From contig JAOUGE010000005.1 of the NCBI GenBank assembly GCA_029865605.1, positions 338 through 64,337 on the forward strand: DNA of 64,000 nucleotides, written 5' to 3'. This DNA is from Candidatus Berkelbacteria bacterium (GTDB taxonomy: Bacteria; Patescibacteriota; UBA1384; DTJR01). This document shows positions 1,141 to 58,908 of this stretch, in pieces; positions within the stretch are counted from its first letter, which is position 1; every line of letters starts with the position of its first letter. The notes under the pieces were generated by a model that was not told where the DNA came from, did no database searches, and worked only from the letters and a program-made list of their open reading frames with translations. The position numbers and the translations under genes are program-made.

Positions 1141-1671
1141 ATGAAGAAGTTAAGGGCGTTTACGTTAGTTGAACTCTTAATTGTGGTGGTCATAATCGGT
1201 ATTTTGGCGACCTTTGTTGCTATCTCGCTTCTTTCGGCCCGAAGCAAGGCAGCTGATGCAAAGGCGAAAGATTCGGTATCTAAGGTAAGAGACGCGGTTG
1301 AACTTGTTGTCTCAGGCAGTGACAACGGGATAGCGGCACTGGTCAATGCAAATTGCGACATCACCAATGGCGTTGTGCCAAAGGGCGCTGCTATAACGGG
1401 CGGGGAGTCATCGGGGAGCTGTAACGCTAGGTTCTATGATGCCGGGGCGGCAGTCTTCAAGTCGGCTGCGCAGGATGCAAAGGGGGAAAACGCCAGAGTA
1501 TATTCTTCAGATACTGCTGCCGGGGTTTGGGTCATCGTGGGAAAGGCATCAAATTATGTTAATGGAACTGCTGTCGACGCTGAAAAGAGATGTTTCTACT
1601 ATAATTCTAACGGTGGTAATAATATGGGTGCCAGTAAAGCGGGGGATAATACCTGCCAAGGCGTCTATTAG
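1141..1671 (+). CDS. Type IV pilin-like protein (major-pilin candidate)
   Basis: N-terminus MKKLRAFTLVELLIVVVIIGILA is a prepilin class III signal with E+5, followed by a hydrophobic helix. AGGAGGG lies upstream of the ATG. Confidence 0.85.
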   Translation: MKKLRAFTLVELLIVVVIIGILATFVAISLLSARSKAADAKAKDSVSKVRDAVELVVSGSDNGIAALVNANCDITNGVVPKGAAITGGESSGSCNARFYDAGAAVFKSAAQDAKGENARVYSSDTAAGVWVIVGKASNYVNGTAVDAEKRCFYYNSNGGNNMGASKAGDNTCQGVY

Positions 1672-6466: not shown

Positions 6467-6609
6467 TGGTAGCGGGGGTGGGATTTGGTCACAAGTCGGC
6501 GCGCATATTTTTCTTAAAGAGTGTGCCGCTCGCGACCCCGCCTCATCCCGCCGTGGCGGGACTCCGGCCTTCAAATCCCATCGCTCCCAATTCTCGGCTT
6601 ACGCCGATC
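6467..6609 (-). repeat. tRNA-3'-flank structured element, copy A (variant without the AGCA loop)
   Basis: Minus strand reads: after the tRNA-fMet CCA, hairpin TCGGC-GTAA-GCCGA; antisense TGGGAGCGA-TGGGATTTGAA; GGCCGGAG; hairpin TCCCGC-CACG-GCGGGA; GAGGCGGGGTCG; long imperfect hairpin; GTGAC. It ends in an exact 21-nt repeat of tRNA C56-CCA (6467-6487 = 6610-6630). Confidence 0.8.
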
Positions 6610-7541: not shown

Positions 7542-7663
7542 GGTTGTTTTTTGGTGAAACGGCGGATTCGAAGGCCGCAGCGAGCGAAGGCGAGCGAGGC
7601 GGGGTCGATTGCCGCGCCAGCAGGTGCGGACAAGTGACCGAATCCTGTCGTTGCCACCAGGTT
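7542..7663 (+). repeat. tRNA-3'-flank structured element, copy B
   Basis: TGGTG-AAACGGC-GGATTCGAA is antisense of the CCA end and T-loop. This is followed by GGCCGCA, hairpin GCGAGC-GAAG-GCGAGC, GAGGCGGGGTCG, hairpin CCGCGCC-AGCA-GGTGCGG and GTGAC. It ends in a 25-nt exact repeat (7639-7663 = 7521-7545). Confidence 0.85.
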
Positions 7664-16823: not shown

Positions 16824-18335
16824 ATGGAGAAACTCTCAATTATTAAGTCGGTTGTTGCAGTCGGGCTCGAGCCACAGGTAGTTGATGTTGAAGTTGATGT
16901 TGGAGCGGGACTACCGGGGTTGACGATTGTCGGCCTTCCCGACAAAGCAGTTGAGGAATCGAAGGAACGAGTCCGCCTCGCTTTGAAAAATTCCGGTTTT
17001 GACTTCCCGCAAAAGAAAATTGTCGTCAACCTTGCTCCGGCTGATGTCAAAAAGGAAGGCCCGGCTTATGATTTGCCGATTGCCGTTGGAACTTTAATTG
17101 CCTCAGGCATCATCAAACCAAAAGAAATTAATAAAACCATCTTTATCGGCGAGCTCTCATTAAGCGGGAAACTGCGGGCAACGAAAGGGATAATTCAGGC
17201 CTCAATTCTAGCGAAAAAAAAGAACCTTTCCCTTGTCTGCCCGATTCAGAACCAAGCCGAAGCCAATTTGATCTCGGGTATAGAAATCCTAGCTGCCGAA
17301 GATCTTAAATCAATGGTTGCGGCATTGCTTGCTGATGATACCAGGATTTTTTCAAAAACCACCGGCGTTAAAGATGTCCCAGAGCCCGACTACGGCGATT
17401 ATGATTTTCAAAATGTTGTTGGCCAGTCTCAAGCCAAGAGAGCGCTTGAGATCGCCGCCGCCGGCGGCCACAACGTGCTTTTGTCCGGCCCGCCCGGCGG
17501 CGGCAAAACACTCTTGTCTCGCAGTATTATCTCGATCCTGCCCCCGCTTGAGGAAGAGGAGCTTTTAGAGGCAACTAAAATTTATTCCGTGGCTGGCCTT
17601 TTAACCGAAGACGAGCCGATTATTATTCGTCGTCCCTTCCGCTCCCCCCATCACACAACCTCCGCCGTGGCAATAATCGGCGGCGGGACATATCCCAAGC
17701 CCGGTGAAATATCATTGGCCAACAAAGGTGTTTTATTTTTAGATGAATTCCCCGAATTTCCCCGCTCGGTTTTGGAAGCCTTGCGCCAGCCGCTTGAAGA
17801 TAAAGTGGTTACTGTTAGCCGGGCCCAAGCCACCTATCGTTTTCCGGCTGACTTTATTTTGGTCGCGGCTAAAAATCCCTGCCCCTGCGGTTTTCTGGGA
17901 GACGAGCATCACGAGTGTAAGTGTCCGGCGACCCAAATTCTAAGCTACGATCGTCGCGTTTCCGGCCCGCTTCTAGACAGGATAGATCTTTATCTTAATG
18001 TCGGGAAAATCCCTCTCAAGAAAATCCAGTCCTCACAAAAAGAAGAAAAATCAAGTGAGGTAAAAAAGAGAGTTATCAAAGCGAGGAGACTGCAAATCTC
18101 AAGGCAGGGGAAGCTAAATAGCCAGCTTAGTAAAAAGGATCTTAATAGATTCGCCGCTCTCAACGAAGAACAGGAAGAATTTTTGGAGGGAGCGGCAGAG
18201 AAGCTTGGCCTTTCGATGCGCGGTTTTATCAAAGTTTTAAGAATTTCAAGGACTATTGCCGACCTTGCCCAAAGCAAAAATGTTTTAATGGAGCATTTGG
18301 CTGAAGCTCTCCAATATCGCCAGCGCGAGCAGTAA
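16824..18335 (+). CDS. comM: ComM/YifB Mg-chelatase-like AAA+ protein
   Basis: Lon-like N-terminal domain, GPPGGGKTLL Walker A, and the ChlI-type C-terminus. Confidence 0.85.
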   Translation: MEKLSIIKSVVAVGLEPQVVDVEVDVGAGLPGLTIVGLPDKAVEESKERVRLALKNSGFDFPQKKIVVNLAPADVKKEGPAYDLPIAVGTLIASGIIKPKEINKTIFIGELSLSGKLRATKGIIQASILAKKKNLSLVCPIQNQAEANLISGIEILAAEDLKSMVAALLADDTRIFSKTTGVKDVPEPDYGDYDFQNVVGQSQAKRALEIAAAGGHNVLLSGPPGGGKTLLSRSIISILPPLEEEELLEATKIYSVAGLLTEDEPIIIRRPFRSPHHTTSAVAIIGGGTYPKPGEISLANKGVLFLDEFPEFPRSVLEALRQPLEDKVVTVSRAQATYRFPADFILVAAKNPCPCGFLGDEHHECKCPATQILSYDRRVSGPLLDRIDLYLNVGKIPLKKIQSSQKEEKSSEVKKRVIKARRLQISRQGKLNSQLSKKDLNRFAALNEEQEEFLEGAAEKLGLSMRGFIKVLRISRTIADLAQSKNVLMEHLAEALQYRQREQ

Positions 18336-22880: not shown

Positions 22881-23129
22881 TTATTGAATACTATTTTTTA
22901 TTTGCTTTTTCAAATCTTCTTTTGGTTTATGTTCTTTGAGCTGTTTCTCTCTTTTGGCAGCGTCTTTTTTACTTAGGTAGCTTTCTAGGTAGACCAATTT
23001 GACAGGCAATTTAGATCTTGTTGATTTAACAAGTCCTTTTTTGTGTCTATTAATCCTGATTTTAACATCGGAGCATGAACCAATATACAGATCTCCGTTT
23101 GCGCATTTTAACGCATAAACTTGGTACAT
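22881..23129 (-). CDS. GIY-YIG nuclease domain protein
   Basis: Start moved to MYQVYALKCANGDLYIGSCSDVKIRINRH (GIY-YIG motifs). The longer track ORF would overlap tRNA-Cys. Confidence 0.7.
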   Translation of the reverse strand: MYQVYALKCANGDLYIGSCSDVKIRINRHKKGLVKSTRSKLPVKLVYLESYLSKKDAAKREKQLKEHKPKEDLKKQIKNSIQ

Positions 23130-23141
23130 AATTTTGGCTTT

Positions 23142-23215
23142 TGGAGGCATCGCCGGGATTTGCACCCGGGTAAACGGTTTTGCAGACCGTTGCCTGACTA
23201 CTCGGCCACGATGCC
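23142..23215 (-). tRNA. tRNA-Cys (GCA)
   Basis: Minus strand reads GGCATCG TG GCCGAGTAGTCAGGC A ACGGT CTGCAAA ACCGT TTAC CCGGG TGCAAAT CCCGG CGATGCC T CCA. Confidence 0.85.
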
Positions 23216-23244: not shown

Positions 23245-23317
23245 GCGGTTTTGTCCTGCGGAGCAGGATCTAGCTTTGCTACGACAGACCGTTGTGTAAC
23301 CACTCCACCACCAGGCC
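23245..23317 (-). pseudogene. tRNA-Cys-like 5' half with a 31-nt insert in the anticodon loop; no T-arm or 3' acceptor strand
   Basis: Minus strand reads GGCCTGG TG GTGGAGTGGTTACAC A ACGGT CTG[31 nt]CAAA ACCGC. It shares CAACGGTCTG and CAAAACCG with the adjacent tRNA-Cys. Confidence 0.55.
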
Positions 23318-23391
23318 GACAGCCAAATCTTATCAGATTTAAGGCGAAAAAAAAGACCGCCTAAGCGGTATGGCGGCCCGGCTCGAGCCCC

Positions 23392-23619
23392 CTACGGGAA
23401 GTAGGGGAACTCGGCCGGGCCGTGGACGATCTTGACTTGGGCCAAGGCGCGGTTAATCACGCCGAAGGCCCAGTCGATCTGGGGCCAGATCACGAGCGTC
23501 AGGGACGCCCCGACTAAGGCCCAGACCCAGCACATGGGGCTGGGTGTTACGGGTTGGGCGGCTGCGAACGGCCACAGCGCCCACCACGCGAGAACGGCGA
23601 GAGCTGCCTTCCAGTTCAT
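23392..23619 (-). CDS. GC-rich small hydrophobic protein (islet 2)
   Basis: 75-aa ORF with AGGAG 7 nt upstream of the ATG and two TM-like segments. A GC hairpin GGCCCGGC...GCCGGGCC lies downstream. Confidence 0.5.
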   Translation of the reverse strand: MNWKAALAVLAWWALWPFAAAQPVTPSPMCWVWALVGASLTLVIWPQIDWAFGVINRALAQVKIVHGPAEFPYFP

Positions 23620-23825
23620 CAGTTGGCTCCTTCCGCTTCAGGGCGCGGCTACCCTAATGTCTTATCAAACATCGCGCCTTCGGAGTTCTACCCCCTCCAG
23701 CGTGACCATTATTTATACCATATTTCTTGATAAAAGTCAAGTCCTGACAGGTTAAAGTTATCGGATCAAAGTTTTTTACTGGGAATATTTACAAAAATGT
23801 ATTTTAAGATACAATTAGACCTGTT

Positions 23826-23900: not shown

Positions 23901-24039
23901 ACGAGATGGCCTTTAGGCCATTTTTCGTTGGAGCACCCTGCCGAGAATTGAAGGCCGGACCCCGCCACGGCGGGGGAGGCGGGGTCGCGAAATTTACCAG
24001 CAGGTAAATATTTGTGACCAATTCCGCTCACCCGCTCCA
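23901..24039 (+). repeat. tRNA-3'-flank structured element, copy C
   Basis: CGTTGGAGC is antisense of ...GCTCCAACG. It is followed by a linker, then GAATTGAA (antisense of the T-loop), GGCCGGA, hairpin CCCCGC-CACG-GCGGGG, GAGGCGGGGTCG, hairpin AAATTTACC-AGCA-GGTAAATATTT and GTGAC. It ends in a 21-nt exact repeat (24019-24039 = 23880-23900). Confidence 0.85.
23906..23925 (+). terminator. Terminator-like hairpin between tRNA-Gly and the antisense arm of element C
   Basis: ATGGCC-TTTA-GGCCAT followed by TTTTT. Confidence 0.6.
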
Positions 24040-28178: not shown

Positions 28179-28282
28179 ATTCTGTATCTTGTATTTTGTA
28201 TCAGGTATCTAGTATTGAACGGTGAATACATGATACATGCTACTTGATACATGATACTTTTTCTTGTACAATCTAACCTGAT

Positions 28283-28368
28283 GCCGAGGTGGTGGAATTG
28301 GTATACACGATAGCTTGAGGAGCTATGCTCGCAAGAGCGTGCAGGTTCGAGTCCTGTCCTCGGCACCA
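28283..28368 (+). tRNA. tRNA-Leu (GAG), class II
   Basis: GCCGAGG/CCTCGGC acceptor stem, anticodon loop CTTGAGGAG, variable arm, T-arm GCAGG-TTCGAGT-CCTGT, encoded CCA. Confidence 0.9.
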
Positions 28369-28523
28369 AGCAGAACTGCCCTTGTGGCAGTTTTTTGCTT
28401 GGTGCCCCGTGGACTCGAAGGCCGGACCTCGCCACGGCGGGGGTTCGAGGGGTGGCACCTGAGAAGGGTCGCGAGGCCCGCCAGCAGGCGGGAACTTGTG
28501 ACCGAGTCCTGTCCTCGGCACCA
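28369..28523 (+). repeat. tRNA-3'-flank structured element, copy D
   Basis: TGCTTGGTGCC-CCGT-GGACTCGAA is antisense of the CCA end and T-loop. It is followed by GGCCGGA, hairpin CCTCGC-CACG-GCGGGG, an extra segment TTCGAGGGGTGGCACC, GAGAAGGGTCG, hairpin CCCGCC-AGCA-GGCGGG and GTGAC. It ends in a 21-nt exact repeat (28503-28523 = 28348-28368). Confidence 0.85.
28375..28396 (+). terminator. Terminator-like hairpin between tRNA-Leu(GAG) and the antisense arm of element D
   Basis: ACTGCC-CTTG-TGGCAGT followed by TTTTTT. Confidence 0.65.
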
Positions 28524-28530
28524 CAAAGAT

Positions 28531-28550
28531 CCCGCTTTAGCGGGGTTTTT
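28531..28550 (+). terminator. Intrinsic terminator after element D
   Basis: CCCGC-TTTA-GCGGG followed by GTTTTT. Confidence 0.7.
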
Positions 28551-28616
28551 CTATGTATTAGGGTTGAAAAATTTTGTGAAAAAAGCTAAAATTACTCCAG
28601 AAGGTCGATAACTTAA

Positions 28617-28868
28617 ATGGAGATGAATATGGCAGACACAAAAATTGGTGTGATAACACACTACTTTGACAAAATTGGGGTTGGGATCATCAAGCTTGAG
28701 GCGCCGCTAAAGAAAGGCGAAACAATTAAGATTGGCGAGGTGGAACAAGTAGTTGATTCAATGCAGGTTGACCATAAGGATATTGATGAAGGCCAACCGG
28801 GTCAGGAAGTCGGCGTCAAAGTCAGCGCCAAGGTTCGCGAAGGCGAGGAAGTTTATAAGGTAGAGTAG
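28617..28868 (+). CDS. Small beta-barrel protein resembling translation-factor domain II
   Basis: 83 aa: IGVITHYFDKIGVGIIKLEAPLKKGETIKIG...GQEVGVKV. Three in-frame ATGs at the start leave the start ambiguous. Confidence 0.5.
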   Translation: MEMNMADTKIGVITHYFDKIGVGIIKLEAPLKKGETIKIGEVEQVVDSMQVDHKDIDEGQPGQEVGVKVSAKVREGEEVYKVE

Positions 28869-28930
28869 GGGGCGGCTAGCTTGGGCTAGAAGCTCATCGG
28901 CCTTTGGCTGACAGCGGGATTTTTAGATGT

Positions 28931-29005
28931 GGGCGGTTAGCTCAACGGTAGAGCATTTGGTTTACATCCAAGGGGTTAAAGGTTCGAATCCTTTACCGCC
29001 CACCA
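28931..29005 (+). tRNA. tRNA-Val (UAC)
   Basis: GGGCGGT/ACCGCCC acceptor stem, anticodon loop TTTACAT, T-arm AAAGG-TTCGAAT-CCTTT, encoded CCA. No flank element; tRNA-Phe follows 25 nt later. Confidence 0.9.
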
Positions 29006-29030
29006 TCGGCTTGCATGAATGGTTTGAAAC

Positions 29031-29106
29031 GCCGGGGTAGCTCAGTGGTTAGAGCACTGGTCTGAAAAACCAGGTGTCGACAGTTCGATTCTGTCCCCCG
29101 GCACCA
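29031..29106 (+). tRNA. tRNA-Phe (GAA)
   Basis: GCCGGGG/CCCCGGC acceptor stem, anticodon arm CTGGT-CTGAAAA-ACCAG, T-arm GACAG-TTCGATT-CTGTC, encoded CCA. Confidence 0.9.
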
Positions 29107-29240
29107 GGCGGAATTGCGAAGCAATTATTTGACTGGTGCGGCGAACCGAGAATCGAAGGCCGGAGCGCGACGGCGCGAGGCGGGGTCGAGCGCAAAATCA
29201 GCAGATTTTGACGGGTGACCGATTCTGTCCCCCGGCACCA
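29107..29240 (+). repeat. tRNA-3'-flank structured element, copy E
   Basis: Hairpin AATTGC-GAA-GCAATT, then CTGGTGC-GGCGAACCG-AGAATCGAA (antisense), GGCCGGA, hairpin GCGC-GACG-GCGC, GAGGCGGGGTCG, hairpin CAAAATC-AGCA-GATTTTG and GTGAC. It ends in a 21-nt exact repeat (29220-29240 = 29086-29106). Confidence 0.85.
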
Positions 29241-29443
29241 TCGCGTATGTCCTCATCTGCCAGAAAAGGTAGATGTGGAGACGCGATTTGACGGGGGCGG
29301 CAGGTCGATAACCTGAGAACCTGCCGACAAGAATCGAAACGCGCAGGCTCGACGGAGCCGAGCGGGGGTCGCGAGGCCCGCCAGCAGGCGGGAACTTGTG
29401 ACCGATTTCCTGCCTGCCGGCAGGCAGGTGTCCCTCTGCACCA
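29241..29443 (+). repeat. tRNA-3'-flank structured element, copy F (tandem, diverged, with a palindrome insert)
   Basis: Second unit directly after copy E: AGAATCGAA, hairpin GGCTC-GACG-GAGCC and GAGCGGGGGTCG. Hairpin 2 is identical to that of copy D. After GTGAC comes a Phe-like 3' end, GATT[CCTGCCTGCCGGCAGGCAGG palindrome]TGTCCCTCTGCACCA. Confidence 0.75.
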
Positions 29444-29469
29444 CTTACCCCGCATGAGCGGGGTTCAAT

Positions 29470-29943
29470 GTGAAATTAAAAATGCAAAACGTCACGGCTT
29501 TTTTGGGTGAAATATTCAGCTTTTTCAAAGAAAAAGTTTTTGATTTTGAGAAGTTTTTTAGTTGGGGTTATCTTAATGCGTCAGCGTCCACAATTCTCCG
29601 GTATTGGATAGTTTACGTCGTGATTTTTGCTCTTTTAATAGTGGTCGGACTATTTATTCAGTTTTATTTTGGGCGCAAAACCCTGCCGAAATTCAGAAAA
29701 AAATTTTATAAGCGTTTGGGCGACTTTCTCGTTTACCCGCCGCTTGTTTATCTTTTTCTTATCACTGTAAGAAGGGCCGGGCTGGAAGGCTTGAATAAGA
29801 GGATTCTTCCAGTTTCTCTTGCGCTTATATGGTTGATTTGGCTGGGCTTTCTGGTATACTACAGAATAGCCGTTGTTTCAAAACTCCAAAAGATGTATTT
29901 GGAACAGCGGAGAAAGGAAAAATATATAAGAAATGGTAGTTAA
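29470..29943 (+). CDS. Hypothetical membrane protein
   Basis: 157-aa ORF with 3-4 TM helices. Confidence 0.45.
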   Translation: MKLKMQNVTAFLGEIFSFFKEKVFDFEKFFSWGYLNASASTILRYWIVYVVIFALLIVVGLFIQFYFGRKTLPKFRKKFYKRLGDFLVYPPLVYLFLITVRRAGLEGLNKRILPVSLALIWLIWLGFLVYYRIAVVSKLQKMYLEQRRKEKYIRNGS

Positions 29944-34663: not shown

Positions 34664-34790
34664 GGTTGTTTTTTGGTGAACAGGGGGGATTCGAAAGCCG
34701 GACCAGCCCAGGGCTGGGAGACGGGGTCGCACAAAAATTCAGCAGAATTTTATGAGTGACCGAATCCCACCTCGCCCACCAGGTTGTTTT
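34664..34790 (+). repeat. tRNA-3'-flank structured element, copy G
   Basis: TGGTG-AACAGGG-GGGATTCGAA (antisense), then AGCCGGA, hairpin CCAGCC-CAG-GGCTGG, GAGACGGGGTCG, hairpin AAAATTC-AGCA-GAATTTT and GTGAC. It ends in a 30-nt exact repeat (34761-34790 = 34643-34672). Confidence 0.85.
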
Positions 34791-48147: not shown

Positions 48148-48335
48148 GCGGGTCCTGTCGGGCACCGTTTTCTCTCGGCCCGCGTCGGAATTCCCAGCGA
48201 GAATTCCGCGCTTAGCCTCGCCCTCACTCTTCCGCCTTCGGCGTAAACCATGCCCGTTCGGCACGCCTGCCGGAGGCAGGGCTCCGGATGACCTCGATAA
48301 AAGGTGCCCGCCACCCGCTGTTCGACAGGAAGGTT
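48148..48335 (+). other. GC-rich structured intergenic region R1 (candidate ncRNA or remnant; strand unknown)
   Basis: Long-range helix CCTGTCG-GGCACC (48154-48166) pairs with GGTGCC...CGACAGG (48303-48329), enclosing several hairpins. One is CGGAATTC-CCAGCGA-GAATTCCG; another is CCTGCC-GGA-GGCAGG. Shares collinear 8-9-mers with R2. Confidence 0.4.
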
Positions 48336-49099: not shown

Positions 49100-49435
49100 C
49101 GGGCTGGCCACCACTTTTTAAAAGTATGGGGGCTCTTAAAAGCATCGCCAAAGTCAGCTCCTTCCCCAAGAGTCAACCTTGCGCTTCGAAAGAAGCTGGA
49201 TTGAATATCTGCTTTATTTATAAACAGGATGAATGTTCAGAGTGTCTTTCAGAAAGCAAGGTTGAACTTTTGAGCGAGCTAGGGGGTTGGTTGTTAGGAT
49301 AGGGGGAACGCTTCGCAAGTAGGTCCCCTTATCCTAACGTGGGTCGGCAGGCTTTAGCCTGCCCTAATTTATGGATTTTTTAAAAATCGGTCCCGTGCGT
49401 TTGCTCGGATTAGGGAAACGGGTTAAGCTATAAGT

Positions 49436-57192: not shown

Positions 57193-58908
57193 ATGGTTTC
57201 GAATTCGGAGTTCGCTAAAATTTTTGAGGAGTTTTCCGAAATTTTGGAGCTGAAGGACGCAAATCGTTTTAGAATTGCCGCTTACCAGAAGGCCTCGCAG
57301 ACAGCTAAATCATTAGGAGAGCCGATTGAGCAAATTTACGAACGCGGAGGAGCTAAAGAACTTGATAATATTCCCGGGATTGGCAAAGGGATAGCTCAAA
57401 AGATTGAGGAGTATATTAAAACCGGGCGGGTAAAGGAGCTCGAAGGTCTCAGAAAATCTCTACCCAGACAAGAGGTTGAATATATGAGGGTACCCGGGAT
57501 CGGGCCAAAGACAGCAACGAAACTACACAAGGAATTTAGGGCGAAAGATTTAGCTGATCTCAAATCTAGGCTGGAAAAAAGCGGCTCGAAATATTTTAAA
57601 GAAAAAACATTGGCTAATATCCTGCGCGGGATTGAGGTGTACAAAGGAATGGGCGGAAGGATGCTTTTGGTTGAAGCCCGGGAAATAGCCCGCGAGGCAG
57701 TTGAATATCTTGAAAAGTCTCGGCTGGCCTCTAAAGTAACGCCCGTGGGGAGCCTCCGACGTTTTAAGGAAACGGTTGGCGACATAGATATTGTAGCTAT
57801 TGCTCCGGATCCTAAAAAAGCGATCGAGTATTTCTCAAAATTTCCGGGTGCGAAGGAAGTAATTTCGAAAGGCGAGGCGAAGGGAACGATTATTCATCGG
57901 CTTGGAGCCCAGGTGGATTTTGAGATAATGCCCGAGGAGTCGTTTGGCTCGCTTTTGCAGCATTTTACGGGGTCAAAAGAGCACAATATTCACCTGCGTA
58001 CATATGCCCAGGAGCACGGCATGAGCGTTTCTGAACATGGCATTAAAAAAGGCAAAAAGCTTATTAGATGTAGGACAGAGGAGGAGGTTTATGGAACCCT
58101 GGGGATGAAATATATCGAGCCGGAGCTTAGGGAAGACAGGGGAGAGATTGAAGCCGCCTTAAACGATAAGCTTCCGGAACTTATTGAGATGAAGGACATC
58201 AAGGGCGACTTTCATGTTCACTCAAACTGGTCTGACGGCAATGCTAAAATTGAGGATTTAGCCAGAAAAGCAGTTGAACTCGGCCATAAGTTTCTTGCGA
58301 TTTCAGACCATACCGTAACGCTTGGCATTGCCCGCGGACTCGATTCGAAAAGGTTTAACCAGCGAAGGCGAGAAATAGAATCTGTCCGTAAAAAATACCG
58401 CGGCCTCAATCTTTTTGACTCATGCGAAGTGAATATTGGCTCAGACGGTAGTCTTGATCTGCCTGATGAGGCAATGAAATATTTTGATGTTGTAACAGCC
58501 TCGATTCACTCTGGTTTCAATCAGTCCAAAGAGCAGATAACAAAGAGAATGATCCGGGCAATGGAGAACGCTTATGTTGATGTAATTGGCCACCCGACCG
58601 GGCGGCTTATTAACCGCCGTGAGGGATATTCGGCCGATTGGGAGCAGGTTTTTAAAACGGCAGCTCAAGAAAATGTGGCTTTAGAGATTAATGCTTCGCC
58701 AGATCGGCTTGATCTGCCGGACGGACTGGTTTTAAAAGCTAAAAAAATGGGGGTCAGGTTTGCGATATCAACCGACTCTCACTCACTTGAGCAGCTTAGT
58801 TTTCTTCCCTTTGGTATTTCTGTTGCCCGGCGCGGATGGTGCGAGAAAAAAGACATTGTTAATGCCTTGGAATTAGAGGAACTAATTAAGTGGCTAAGGG
58901 GCGGCTAG
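57193..58908 (+). CDS. polX: Family X DNA polymerase with C-terminal PHP domain
   Basis: HhH motifs (IPGIGKGIAQKI, VPGIGPKTA), the GSLRRFKETVGDIDIV nucleotidyltransferase motif, and the HVHSNWSDG PHP motif. Confidence 0.9.
   Translation: MVSNSEFAKIFEEFSEILELKDANRFRIAAYQKASQTAKSLGEPIEQIYERGGAKELDNIPGIGKGIAQKIEEYIKTGRVKELEGLRKSLPRQEVEYMRVPGIGPKTATKLHKEFRAKDLADLKSRLEKSGSKYFKEKTLANILRGIEVYKGMGGRMLLVEAREIAREAVEYLEKSRLASKVTPVGSLRRFKETVGDIDIVAIAPDPKKAIEYFSKFPGAKEVISKGEAKGTIIHRLGAQVDFEIMPEESFGSLLQHFTGSKEHNIHLRTYAQEHGMSVSEHGIKKGKKLIRCRTEEEVYGTLGMKYIEPELREDRGEIEAALNDKLPELIEMKDIKGDFHVHSNWSDGNAKIEDLARKAVELGHKFLAISDHTVTLGIARGLDSKRFNQRRREIESVRKKYRGLNLFDSCEVNIGSDGSLDLPDEAMKYFDVVTASIHSGFNQSKEQITKRMIRAMENAYVDVIGHPTGRLINRREGYSADWEQVFKTAAQENVALEINASPDRLDLPDGLVLKAKKMGVRFAISTDSHSLEQLSFLPFGISVARRGWCEKKDIVNALELEELIKWLRGG

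Follow-up and report, generated by a model that had tools for sequence, protein, structure and literature searches.

Two diverged structured RNA units in tandem behind tRNA-Phe represent a widespread, apparently undescribed class of RNA element at tRNA and tmRNA 3' ends in Patescibacteria

The region described here lies behind the tRNA-Phe gene of a Candidatus Berkelbacteria bacterium, in a 64,000-nucleotide stretch of contig JAOUGE010000005.1 that is referred to below as the window. The gene, tRNA-Phe(GAA), occupies positions 29031-29106 on the + strand, encodes its CCA and was called both by ARAGORN and by the Rfam tRNA model (74.7 bits). It is directly preceded by tRNA-Val and is the host of two non-coding units, E (29107-29240, +) and F (29241-29443, +). 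The original prediction, made from the letters alone, had described two complete units in tandem at this place, and both were recovered from the sequence and with a covariance model (90 bits for E, 66 bits for F). Promoter-like sites are located upstream of tRNA-Leu(GAG) and of the group formed by an open reading frame (ORF), tRNA-Val and tRNA-Phe; there is a terminator 3' of unit D, the unit behind tRNA-Leu(GAG), and the promoter scan showed no promoter-like site inside units D, E and F. A GC hairpin 3' of unit F (CCCCGC-atga-GCGGGG, 29448-29463, +) is the probable end of the transcription unit; its T tail is weak and the terminator scan did not call it.

From 5' to 3' a unit consists of a spacer, which is often a terminator-like hairpin, a segment X', R-GCCG(G/C)A, hairpin 1, GAGGCGGGGUCG, hairpin 2, GUGACC and a segment X. 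X' is an imperfect reverse complement of tRNA nt 54-76 and always ends in GAA. X repeats the tRNA directly, from R57 up to the discriminator, and includes CCA if this is encoded in the gene. Both hairpins are variable, except that hairpin 2 has an invariant bulged A and often a CAGCAG loop. Units are approximately 95-200 nt long and the duplicated repeat measures 20-30 nt, from C56/R57 to the discriminator or CCA.

The spacer of unit E (29107-29133, +) contains a small hairpin (AATTGC-gaa-GCAATT) and an ATTTGAC stretch that is also present in F. The antisense X' of unit E (29134-29157, +) is TGGTGC-GGCGAACCG-AGAATCGAA; its outer 6 nt pair with GCACCA and its inner AGAATCG with CGATTCT, the middle 9 nt being unpaired, and the minimum-free-energy fold recovers both the outer and the inner part of this X':X helix, P1. 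The core (29155-29220, +; covariance model match 29143-29232, 90.1 bits) follows the consensus structure. J1/2 is GAAG, P2 (GCC:GGC) is continued by an internal loop (GGA/GA) and hairpin 1, J2/3 is GG, and P3 (GGUCG:UGACC) leads into hairpin 2 with its CAGCAG loop and bulged A. X (29221-29240, +) copies tRNA-Phe from G57 of the T-loop to CCA. When C29220 is included, 21 nt of the tRNA (29086-29106, T-loop C56 to CCA) are identical to 29220-29240.

Unit F begins with a spacer hairpin (TCGCGT...ACGCGA, 29241-29285, +), delimited from the sequence and the alignment of units, that is unrelated to the spacer of E. Its antisense region (29286-29338, +), identified by sequence, fold and pattern match, comprises ATTTGAC, GGGGGC, a junction hairpin (CGGCAGGU...ACCUGCCG, 29298-29326, +), GACA and AGAATCGAA. 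The last of these, at 29330-29338, is the Phe-specific antisense that F had been predicted to retain. The pre-core string ATTTGAC..G.GCGGC, which the two units were said to have in common, is indeed found at 29127-29142 in E and at 29286-29301 in F. The core of F (29336-29403, +; covariance model match 29324-29415, 66.1 bits; fold z = -5.0) includes hairpin 1 (29346-29359, +) and P3 with hairpin 2 (29366-29403, +), the latter identical to unit D. X (29404-29443, +), again placed from the sequence and the alignment of units, reads GATTT, then CCTGCCTGCCGGCAGGCAGG, then TGTCCCTCTGCACCA. The middle element (29409-29428, no strand) was found by a sequence scan and is a perfect 20-nt palindrome that splits X, as had been noticed earlier. 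Relative to the tRNA, X of unit F has two substitutions in addition to this interruption; the counterpart in unit E reads GATTCTGTCCCCCGGCACCA.

The terminal repeat of F had been called diverged. The substitutions and the interruption are real, but unit F is not simply a diverged copy, as compensatory changes keep the structure. P2 in unit F is CGC (29340-29342):GCG (29362-29364) in place of the otherwise invariant GCC:GGC, that is, two compensatory flips, which have counterparts in only a few other units of a 96-sequence model-fitted alignment. Additionally, GGGGG of unit F pairs with its own diverged CCCUC in X by way of a G.U pair. The compensatory P2, the GGGGG:CCCUC pairing, the score of 66 bits and the fold z of -5.0 mark unit F as a structurally intact, maintained variant and not a decaying copy.

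The X' regions of E and F are homologous, with ATTTGAC followed by TGGTGC or GGGGGC and then GGC (shared stretch ATTTGAC-NGGNGCGGC), which suggests that the two units descend from one duplication. After this duplication the spacers, hairpin 1 and hairpin 2 of E and F would have been replaced, and unit F would have gained its junction hairpin, the nested palindrome and the two substitutions in X. The two units are now 51% identical, their longest common exact string is 10 nt, and the E-F, D-F and D-E comparisons range from 51 to 60%. The original prediction was exposed to the objection that the tandem is an assembly artefact. Repeats can mislead assemblers, but units without a common exact string of more than 10 nt cannot have arisen by repeat collapse or expansion. 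Tandem or heterotypic arrays also occur in independent assemblies (L005, L010, L013, L029, L036, L072, L096, L119 and L125; L-numbers are labels of other genome, metagenome and viral stretches compared with the window). The probability of an artefact is therefore negligible.

ARAGORN called nine tRNA genes in the window and a complete tRNA upstream of every unit. Seven units lie behind six of these genes, on the same strand: A behind tRNA-fMet (6467-6609, -), B behind tRNA-Met (7542-7659, +), C behind tRNA-Gly(GCC) (23901-24039, +), D behind tRNA-Leu(GAG) (28369-28523, +), E and F behind tRNA-Phe, and G behind tRNA-Leu(TAA) (34664-34781, +). The tRNA-Cys, tRNA-Leu(CAG) and tRNA-Val genes carry none. 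The units were delimited from the sequence and with the covariance model, which recovers all seven at 52-90 bits, and a degenerate core pattern has five matches in the window where 0.00 are expected. The only other covariance match in the window is weak (16949-17013; 13 bits, E = 0.037), lies inside a coding sequence and was dismissed as chance. The units have a G+C content of 61-67%, in a window of 46.6%.

When the core pattern was scanned over one genome per species, at least 120 loci were found, the great majority in Patescibacteria (Saccharibacteria, Paceibacterota/Parcubacteria, Kaiserbacteria, Berkelbacteria and many others); chance matches to this pattern arise in G+C-rich genomes. Among the matches listed, 82 of 130 were located up to 400 nt downstream of a same-strand tRNA, with 31 anticodon types represented. 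The covariance model, run on 100 of these loci, gave 96 matches, mostly in Patescibacteria. Sixty-four were directly after a tRNA, three after a tmRNA called by ARAGORN, six behind another unit and five behind a different element that follows a tRNA, while six lay at contig edges and 12 had no call. Rfam identified tmRNA genes directly upstream of the units in L029 and L082, and X in these units is the tmRNA 3' end. In the sampled loci, units follow around half of all tRNA and tmRNA genes; as the loci were selected for carrying a unit, this share is biased.

Several features of single loci were noted in these comparisons. Units after tmRNA are found at L029:1372-1492 and 1203-1318 (-), two in tandem, at L082:4245-4358 (-), and in L034, L073 and L121. 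Orphan units with a tRNA-type X and no tRNA gene upstream are present at L009:2627-2716 (-) and in L111 (core at oriented 2342-2432), where a TGnTAGAAT extended -10-like motif stands just 5' of the unit. In L112 a tRNA gene begins 8 nt past X of the unit behind tRNA-Arg, so units can lie inside tRNA operons. A second, unrelated core was also seen behind tRNAs (GAAAG, a hairpin, GGTRTACTG, a CCCGTAGGG-like hairpin, then X), at L010:2733-2900, at L048:150-340, in L096 between tRNA-Trp and a type-1 unit, and in L030. It sits on the same X'/X scaffold and is often in tandem with a type-1 unit, which shows that the scaffold is the general principle and that the cores are exchangeable.

No Rfam 15 family matched the type-1 or type-2 cores at gathering or permissive thresholds, and only tRNA and tmRNA reached gathering scores. 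At E up to 10 over 28250-29500 there were only chance microRNA and leader matches on the palindrome and the terminator, the unit cores remaining unmatched, and on the related loci no known ribozyme family appeared at E up to 0.1. BLAST of unit E against phage and plasmid collections gave no match. The core pattern did occur in three viral stretches without tRNAs, two of them 63-64% G+C, and these were taken as chance. A literature search that included sequence words found no description of the units or of the palindrome. A survey of tRNA introns in Patescibacteria does not mention the units and reports no group II introns in the phylum, and this argues against retro-mobility. The units form a widespread and strongly supported class of RNA element at tRNA and tmRNA 3' ends in the Candidate Phyla Radiation (CPR) that has apparently not been described.

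The breadth of the host range bears on the idea that the units are attL/attR scars of integrase-borne islands in tRNA genes. The direct repeat from T-loop to 3' end is the classical T-loop-type att duplication. An integrase, however, is specific for one site, and here one conserved, covarying core stands behind more than 30 tRNA types and tmRNA. The units contain no ORF, and the 58 larger ORFs of the window, which are housekeeping genes, include no integrase or cargo (nor a transposase, TnpB/IscB, Cas or reverse transcriptase). Moreover, the sequence 5' of X is the invariant GUGACC and not a T-stem half, and a host-matched antisense has no place in att sites. The single core behind more than 30 targets, together with the antisense, excludes classical att scars, and the idea as a whole is scarcely credible.

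The fold was derived from 42 units, representing more than 30 tRNA types, that were aligned with MAFFT. The RNAalifold consensus has four helices, P2 (GCC:GGC), hairpin 1, P3 (GGUCG:UGACC) and hairpin 2, with double changes in 14 of the 22 predicted pairs. When P1 (X':X) is added, 88% of the cells in this alignment pair, in comparison with 69% in column shuffles and 35-45% with slid partners, and the covariation score of 0.51 (versus 0.16) was reached by none of 500 shuffles. The model-fitted alignment of 96 sequences, which leans towards the model, gives 91.8% versus 69.5%. The compensatory changes thus go beyond both the shuffled and the slid controls, as is expected of a structured non-coding RNA of any kind. 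The invariant G.U in P3 shows that the RNA is read on the tRNA strand. For unit E, the minimum-free-energy state is the consensus structure.

The helices meet in a three-way junction with J1/2 GAAR, J2/3 GG and no linker between P3 and P1, and the core measures approximately 70 nt. As P3 abuts P1 without an unpaired base, the GACC|R57 boundary, where the non-tRNA part ends and the tRNA-derived part begins, is placed at the centre of the fold. This geometry speaks for a rival reading in which the core, acting as a small ribozyme or together with an enzyme, would cut or join RNA exactly at GACC|R57. X'-GAA would then be an internal guide like P1/P10 of group I introns, aligning both sides of the 56|57 junction in the T-loop, and tRNA 3' ends would be released or exchanged. 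Consistent with this, the complementarity of X'+GAA to tRNA nt 54-76 is continuous across 56|57, GAA adding 3 bp with T54-C56, and introns are known from the T-loop of tmRNA (10.1101/2020.01.27.920355). The subclass with tandem G.A in place of the U-C:G-A pairs beside the junction (GGAYGA-GAA) can be counted on the same side. Set against this, no known ribozyme family matches (E up to 10 over 28250-29500, up to 0.1 in related loci), a core of around 70 nt is small for splicing chemistry, and the tRNA upstream is intact, so that no reaction would be needed to make it. We consider a cutting or joining core distinctly improbable.

The subclass just mentioned has GGAYGA-GAA where other units have GGAYUC-GAA beside the junction, so that tandem G.A mismatches take the place of the two Watson-Crick pairs formed with G57-A58 of X (L013, L050, L051, L086, L093, L098, L120 and others). 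An optional small hairpin (e.g. AGUGUACUCAC or GGUGUAAUCACC, loop UAAU/UACU) occurs right after GACC-GA in L012, L036, L047, L064, L082, L091, L095 and L116, at a site near the position of the palindrome in unit F. Several known RNAs were compared with the fold and rejected. The CUGAUGA/GAAA layout does not fit a hammerhead, and a K-turn would need 5 versus 2 nt where the units have 3 versus 2. Mimicry of a tRNA minihelix, directed at RNase P, RNase Z or the CCA enzyme, is unlikely: both discriminator and CCA are paired, and at 17 bp or more the helix is too long. A group I intron is excluded, as the tRNA upstream is intact, RF00028 does not match, and there are only three helices in around 70 nt and no P3-P9 core. 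A T-box riboswitch finds no Rfam T-box match, and the units are 3' of tRNA genes with an antisense of 20 nt or more, not NCCA only. MITE/REP elements have fixed terminal inverted repeats and a short target duplication of constant length, whereas X' and X vary with the host tRNA and the duplication is 20-30 nt.

X has no CCA wherever the tRNA gene has none. X was therefore copied from the gene or the primary transcript and not from mature tRNA, and a retro-copy of mature tRNA was rejected on this ground.

The closing helix is matched to the host. Cognate X':X duplexes have a mean energy of -18.3 kcal/mol, in comparison with -13.0 for X' with X of other tRNA types (p = 6e-14), and the specificity holds beyond the conserved T-loop (p = 6e-5). 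In the fullest units the 5' part of X' is the complement of the discriminator and trailer plus the equivalent of the acceptor 5' strand, and the 3' part is the equivalent of the T-stem 5' strand plus the complement of T-loop 57-60. Between these acceptor-equivalent and T-stem-equivalent halves there is a junction hairpin (loop CAACUGCUUG), and this is the position of the hairpin at 29298-29326 in unit F; unit E has no hairpin there. The spacer hairpin stem often continues into a long hairpin of tRNA 3' end and X', as in units C and D of the window, and L063 and L091 have perfect palindromes of approximately 50 nt made of the tRNA 3' end and X'. L050 and L104 are clean compensations of X' to its own X.

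Among 27 units, 13 have an antisense that pairs better with the end of the tRNA and its trailer than with the end of X and its flank, and two show the opposite (p = 0.004). This preference would fit a host device that controls or assists tRNA maturation and acts like a riboswitch: X' (with GAA) would have two alternative partners, the decoy X and the 3' end of the upstream tRNA or pre-tRNA, and a ligand or protein bound at the conserved junction would stabilize P1 and free the tRNA. The architecture resembles an aptamer, in that invariant bases line a three-way junction which P1 closes, and X competes exactly with the tRNA end. The second, unrelated core on the X'/X scaffold (L010, L048, L096) recalls aptamers that share an expression platform, and the share of around half of the tRNA and tmRNA genes with a unit, biased as the sampled loci are, points in the same direction. 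Against it are the patchy presence of units at the same tRNA among close relatives, the heterotypic and homotypic tandem arrays and the orphan units without a tRNA (L009, L111). A folded tRNA is also hard to invade, and the analysis revealed neither a ligand nor a regulated output. We regard a maturation switch as unlikely.

X could alternatively be the guide of an RNA that serves a protein encoded elsewhere, with the core as scaffold, the 20-nt 3' X as guide and the TTC-preceded 3' end of the tRNA gene as target. The layout of scaffold and then 20 nt fits, X is derived from the flank, and ACC stands before X in the unit where TTC stands in the tRNA gene. However, X is already paired to X' in the same RNA and the intact neighbouring tRNA would itself be a target. 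TnpB, IscB, Cas, IS110, integrase and transposase genes are absent from the 58 window ORFs scanned, and the units are not linked to any recurring protein gene. A guide function is highly improbable.

Gain or loss of units could be followed in relatives that were found through the NDP-sugar synthase of the window (L124, L125 and L126 at 85% identity, L127 at 74%, L128 at 67%). This protein also identifies the source as a Candidatus Berkelbacteria MAG; look-ups of the exact protein of the window's own gene gave no record. Behind tRNA-Leu(CAG) the window is empty, L124 and L126 have one unit, L125 has two identical units, and L127 and L128 are empty. The sequence of this tRNA does not differ between the window and L124/L126; 20-nt repeats flank an insert of 113 nt, and the downstream flank is orthologous. 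Behind tRNA-Leu(GAG) the window has unit D, L126, L125 and L128 are empty, L127 has a different unit with another spacer and other hairpins, and in L124 the gene is at the contig end. L128 keeps the native terminator at this tRNA; in the window that terminator sits between the tRNA and unit D. Behind tRNA-Phe, where the window has E and F, L128 is empty, and L124-L127 do not cover the locus. There is thus presence/absence polymorphism, as well as copy-number polymorphism within one population.

The two Leu(CAG) copies in L125 have a period of 113 nt, and the sister contigs have one copy. This supports the original prediction that the repeat unit comprises the tRNA 3' end, spacer, antisense and core together ([X + spacer + antisense + core]). 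In these near-identical organisms the unit lies doubled at L125:29-232 and single at L124:3828-3918 and L126:824-914.

Units at one tRNA differ more between relatives than units at different tRNAs within a genome. P3 and hairpin 2 of unit D (28466-28503) are identical to 29366-29403 of unit F over 38 of 38 nt, as had been noticed, and the exact match extends over 40 nt (D 28466-28505); unit D is either the donor or the recipient of this hairpin 2 module. Hairpin 2 of unit B is nearly that of the Leu(CAG) unit of a relative (L124), hairpin 1 of unit E resembles hairpin 1 of the same L124 unit, and CCGCCACGGCGGG is common to hairpin 1 of units A, C and D. Units B and G, which follow different tRNAs with the same T-loop, have X' ends in common as well as the spacer GGTWGTTTTTTGGT, which is also present in the L124 unit. 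The exchange of modules between loci, first proposed from the hairpin shared by D and F, is borne out by this further sharing of hairpins and spacers. Short-tract exchange anchored on invariant core segments would explain the mosaic pattern.

The palindrome in X of unit F turned out to be a separate and widespread element and not a unit-specific module. CCTGCCTGCCGGCAGGCAGG is unique in the window, where 0.00 copies are expected even if 3 mismatches are allowed. In 936 kb of unit-bearing genome loci there are five copies of the 19-20-nt palindrome, four of them within X of a unit (F in the window, L054, L060 and L079), at the T-loop/T-stem or T-stem/acceptor boundary; the copies in L060 and L079 have substitutions and that in L054 is one base shorter. 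The exact 20-mer is present in at least 120 metagenome contigs from many laboratories (L129-L248; 127 copies, median 43% G+C) and in 35 viral-contig stretches (L249-L283), several with 2-6 copies. The covariance model found no type-1 unit near the palindrome in 100 metagenome loci (564 kb).

Precise insertions of the palindrome that duplicate no target sequence interrupt D-loops of tRNA fragments and, in L273, the variable loop of a complete phage tRNA-Met. Other contexts include AT-rich repeats, ORFs and, in L163, a duplicated T-arm behind a tRNA-Ala. For 17 of the 127 metagenome copies the frame stays open over 60 or more codons to either side; in SecA (L210) and a P-type ATPase (L221), for example, the palindrome is read in-frame as 21 nt. 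There was no enrichment at the tips of longer hairpins (1.6% versus 1.3%), and only one of 169 copies is in a complete tRNA, so removal of the palindrome does not generally restore tRNA genes. In-register insertions, variants and the many sources make an adapter artefact seem unlikely. We read the palindrome as a separate, very small recurrent insertion element that landed in X of unit F by chance. It may rank among the smallest known recurrent insertion elements, and it reaches phage contigs and protein-coding genes.

A family of related GGCAGG/CCTGCC hairpins had also been proposed. Such hairpins do exist at 29299-29325, 48266-48280 and 49346-49363, but they have only the 6-nt arms in common and a family link is unsupported. 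The first is the junction hairpin of unit F itself; the second lies in a GC-rich non-coding stretch; the third neighbours another hairpin upstream of an ORF and is not followed by a T run. Such hairpins are only modestly enriched (2 observed versus 0.16 expected, reached in 1 of 100 shuffles). The stretch around the second (48150-48330), between the gene for PBP and the next ORF, is G+C-rich, contains several hairpins and may be another structured RNA; no Rfam family matched it at E up to 1.

Taken together, these results lead us to favour, with slightly better than even chances, a reading in which the two units behind tRNA-Phe are diverged members of one family. The family would consist of structured RNA insertion modules, driven by recombination, at tRNA and tmRNA 3' flanks across Patescibacteria. 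This reading takes as established the fold, the host-matched closing helix, the association with tRNA and tmRNA genes, gain or loss, copy-number variation and module mosaicism. The steps proposed for it are held with different degrees of confidence. With moderate confidence, recombination or slippage between the direct copies of X would both add units and remove them precisely, and modules would be exchanged by short-tract gene conversion anchored on invariant core segments. With similar confidence, new tRNA loci would be colonized through the near-universal microhomology of T-loop and 3' end, as units B and G suggest with their same T-loop and common spacer and X' ends, and the outer X' would be re-matched by hairpin-templated (quasi-palindrome) copying, because its complementarity runs into the tRNA's own trailer. 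More tentatively, the unit would be co-transcribed with the tRNA as a self-contained domain that keeps X' off the tRNA. Equally tentatively, the invariant junction may be recognized by a conserved factor or ligand, or may be catalytic.

Several points weigh against insertion modules of this kind. Around half of the units have a terminator-like hairpin between tRNA and unit, which would limit read-through. Co-transcription with the tRNAs, the simplest reading, and the ends of the RNA are inferred, as is the route by which X' would come to match more than 30 different tRNAs. As a unit is easily lost precisely through the X repeats, the direction, gain or loss, is uncertain. Where the sequences of X and the tRNA are not the same, X' is the better fit to the tRNA version in seven cases and to its own X in three, and neither is better in five. 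Antisense complementarity often runs into the tRNA trailer, and pairing of X' with the upstream tRNA end may be the relevant state. Finally, approximately 30 core positions are invariant across the superphylum, which exceeds what passive insertion needs and points to a specific activity.

Another possibility, the most novel one considered, is that the units serve as programmable RNA devices for tRNA 3' ends. As a host-matched internal guide, X'-GAA would dock the cognate tRNA or pre-tRNA, from T-loop to 3' end, at the conserved junction, which would be catalytic or ligand-binding; the device would then either cleave or ligate at 56|57, exchanging or repairing 3' ends with the spare X, or gate maturation by a cellular signal. 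We consider this quite unlikely. If it were true, the two unrelated cores on one scaffold would represent two effector or aptamer classes.

The closing helix is written in the sequence of the neighbouring tRNA, a new, protein-free route to target specificity for an element or for a regulator. The units bear on how streamlined genomes tolerate or use RNA-based parasites and on tRNA 3'-end processing where RNase sets are reduced. They also matter for annotation, as duplicated tRNA 3' ends resemble the att sites of islands.

Other features of the window include a 94-aa ORF with a GIY-YIG nuclease domain (22884-23165, -), whose start lies within the 3' end of tRNA-Cys, at the position that a unit occupies behind other tRNAs; a second copy of this 3' end was looked for behind the ORF and not found. 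A tRNA-like fragment (GGTGGAGTGGTTACACAACGGTCTG..., 23250-23330, -) was not called by ARAGORN. The segment adjoining it, between tRNA-Cys and tRNA-Gly (23370-23620), is unusually G+C-rich and has a 75-aa ORF. A family X DNA polymerase (Pol beta-like, with a PHP domain) is encoded at 57193-58905, in a reduced genome, and is a possible gap-filling player in template-switch insertions.

Among known systems, the units share with tyrosine-integrase att duplications of the T-loop sublocation class their tRNA and tmRNA hosts, the block from T-loop to 3' end (sometimes with trailer), the intact tRNA and the accumulation in tandem. They differ in being gene-free and 95-200 nt long, in having one RNA core for more than 30 targets and a target-matched antisense, and in the bases 5' of the distal repeat, which form an invariant RNA helix instead of a recombinase core site. 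Patescibacteria are a lineage rich in tRNA-borne RNA elements (PMC13011429). The group I introns of their tRNAs and the T-loop introns of tmRNA resemble the units in having a guide segment complementary to both sides of a point in a tRNA loop. In contrast, the units have no group I catalytic core, consist of around 70 nt plus the guide, and follow a complete, uninterrupted tRNA. With riboswitch aptamers that have a P1 switching helix they share the three-way junction, invariant junction nucleotides, covarying hairpins, an alternative partner for P1 and tandem arrangement, but they lie at tRNA gene 3' ends and not in mRNA leaders, their P1 is dictated by the neighbouring gene, no Rfam class matches and no regulated gene is evident.

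Like MITE/REP repeats, the units are short, non-coding, structured and multi-copy, with presence/absence polymorphism and mosaic copies. Unlike them, they have X' and X copied from the target and different at each locus, a duplication of 20-30 nt, a strict location at tRNA and tmRNA 3' ends, and covariation of the RNA type, including G.U. In transposon omega-RNAs the guide is the flanking target DNA. The units resemble those of TnpB/IscB in the conserved scaffold followed by a 3' segment of approximately 20 nt equal to the flank or target, but have no linked nuclease gene, a guide pre-paired to an internal antisense, and a target kept intact beside them. Finally, the nested palindrome is comparable to Rickettsia palindromic elements and yeast mitochondrial GC clusters, which are also GC-rich and occur in RNA genes, in intergenic regions and in-frame in protein genes. 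It is distinguished from them by its length of 20 nt, its perfect conservation, its presence in contigs of 29-71% GC and in viral contigs, and insertion with no target duplication seen.

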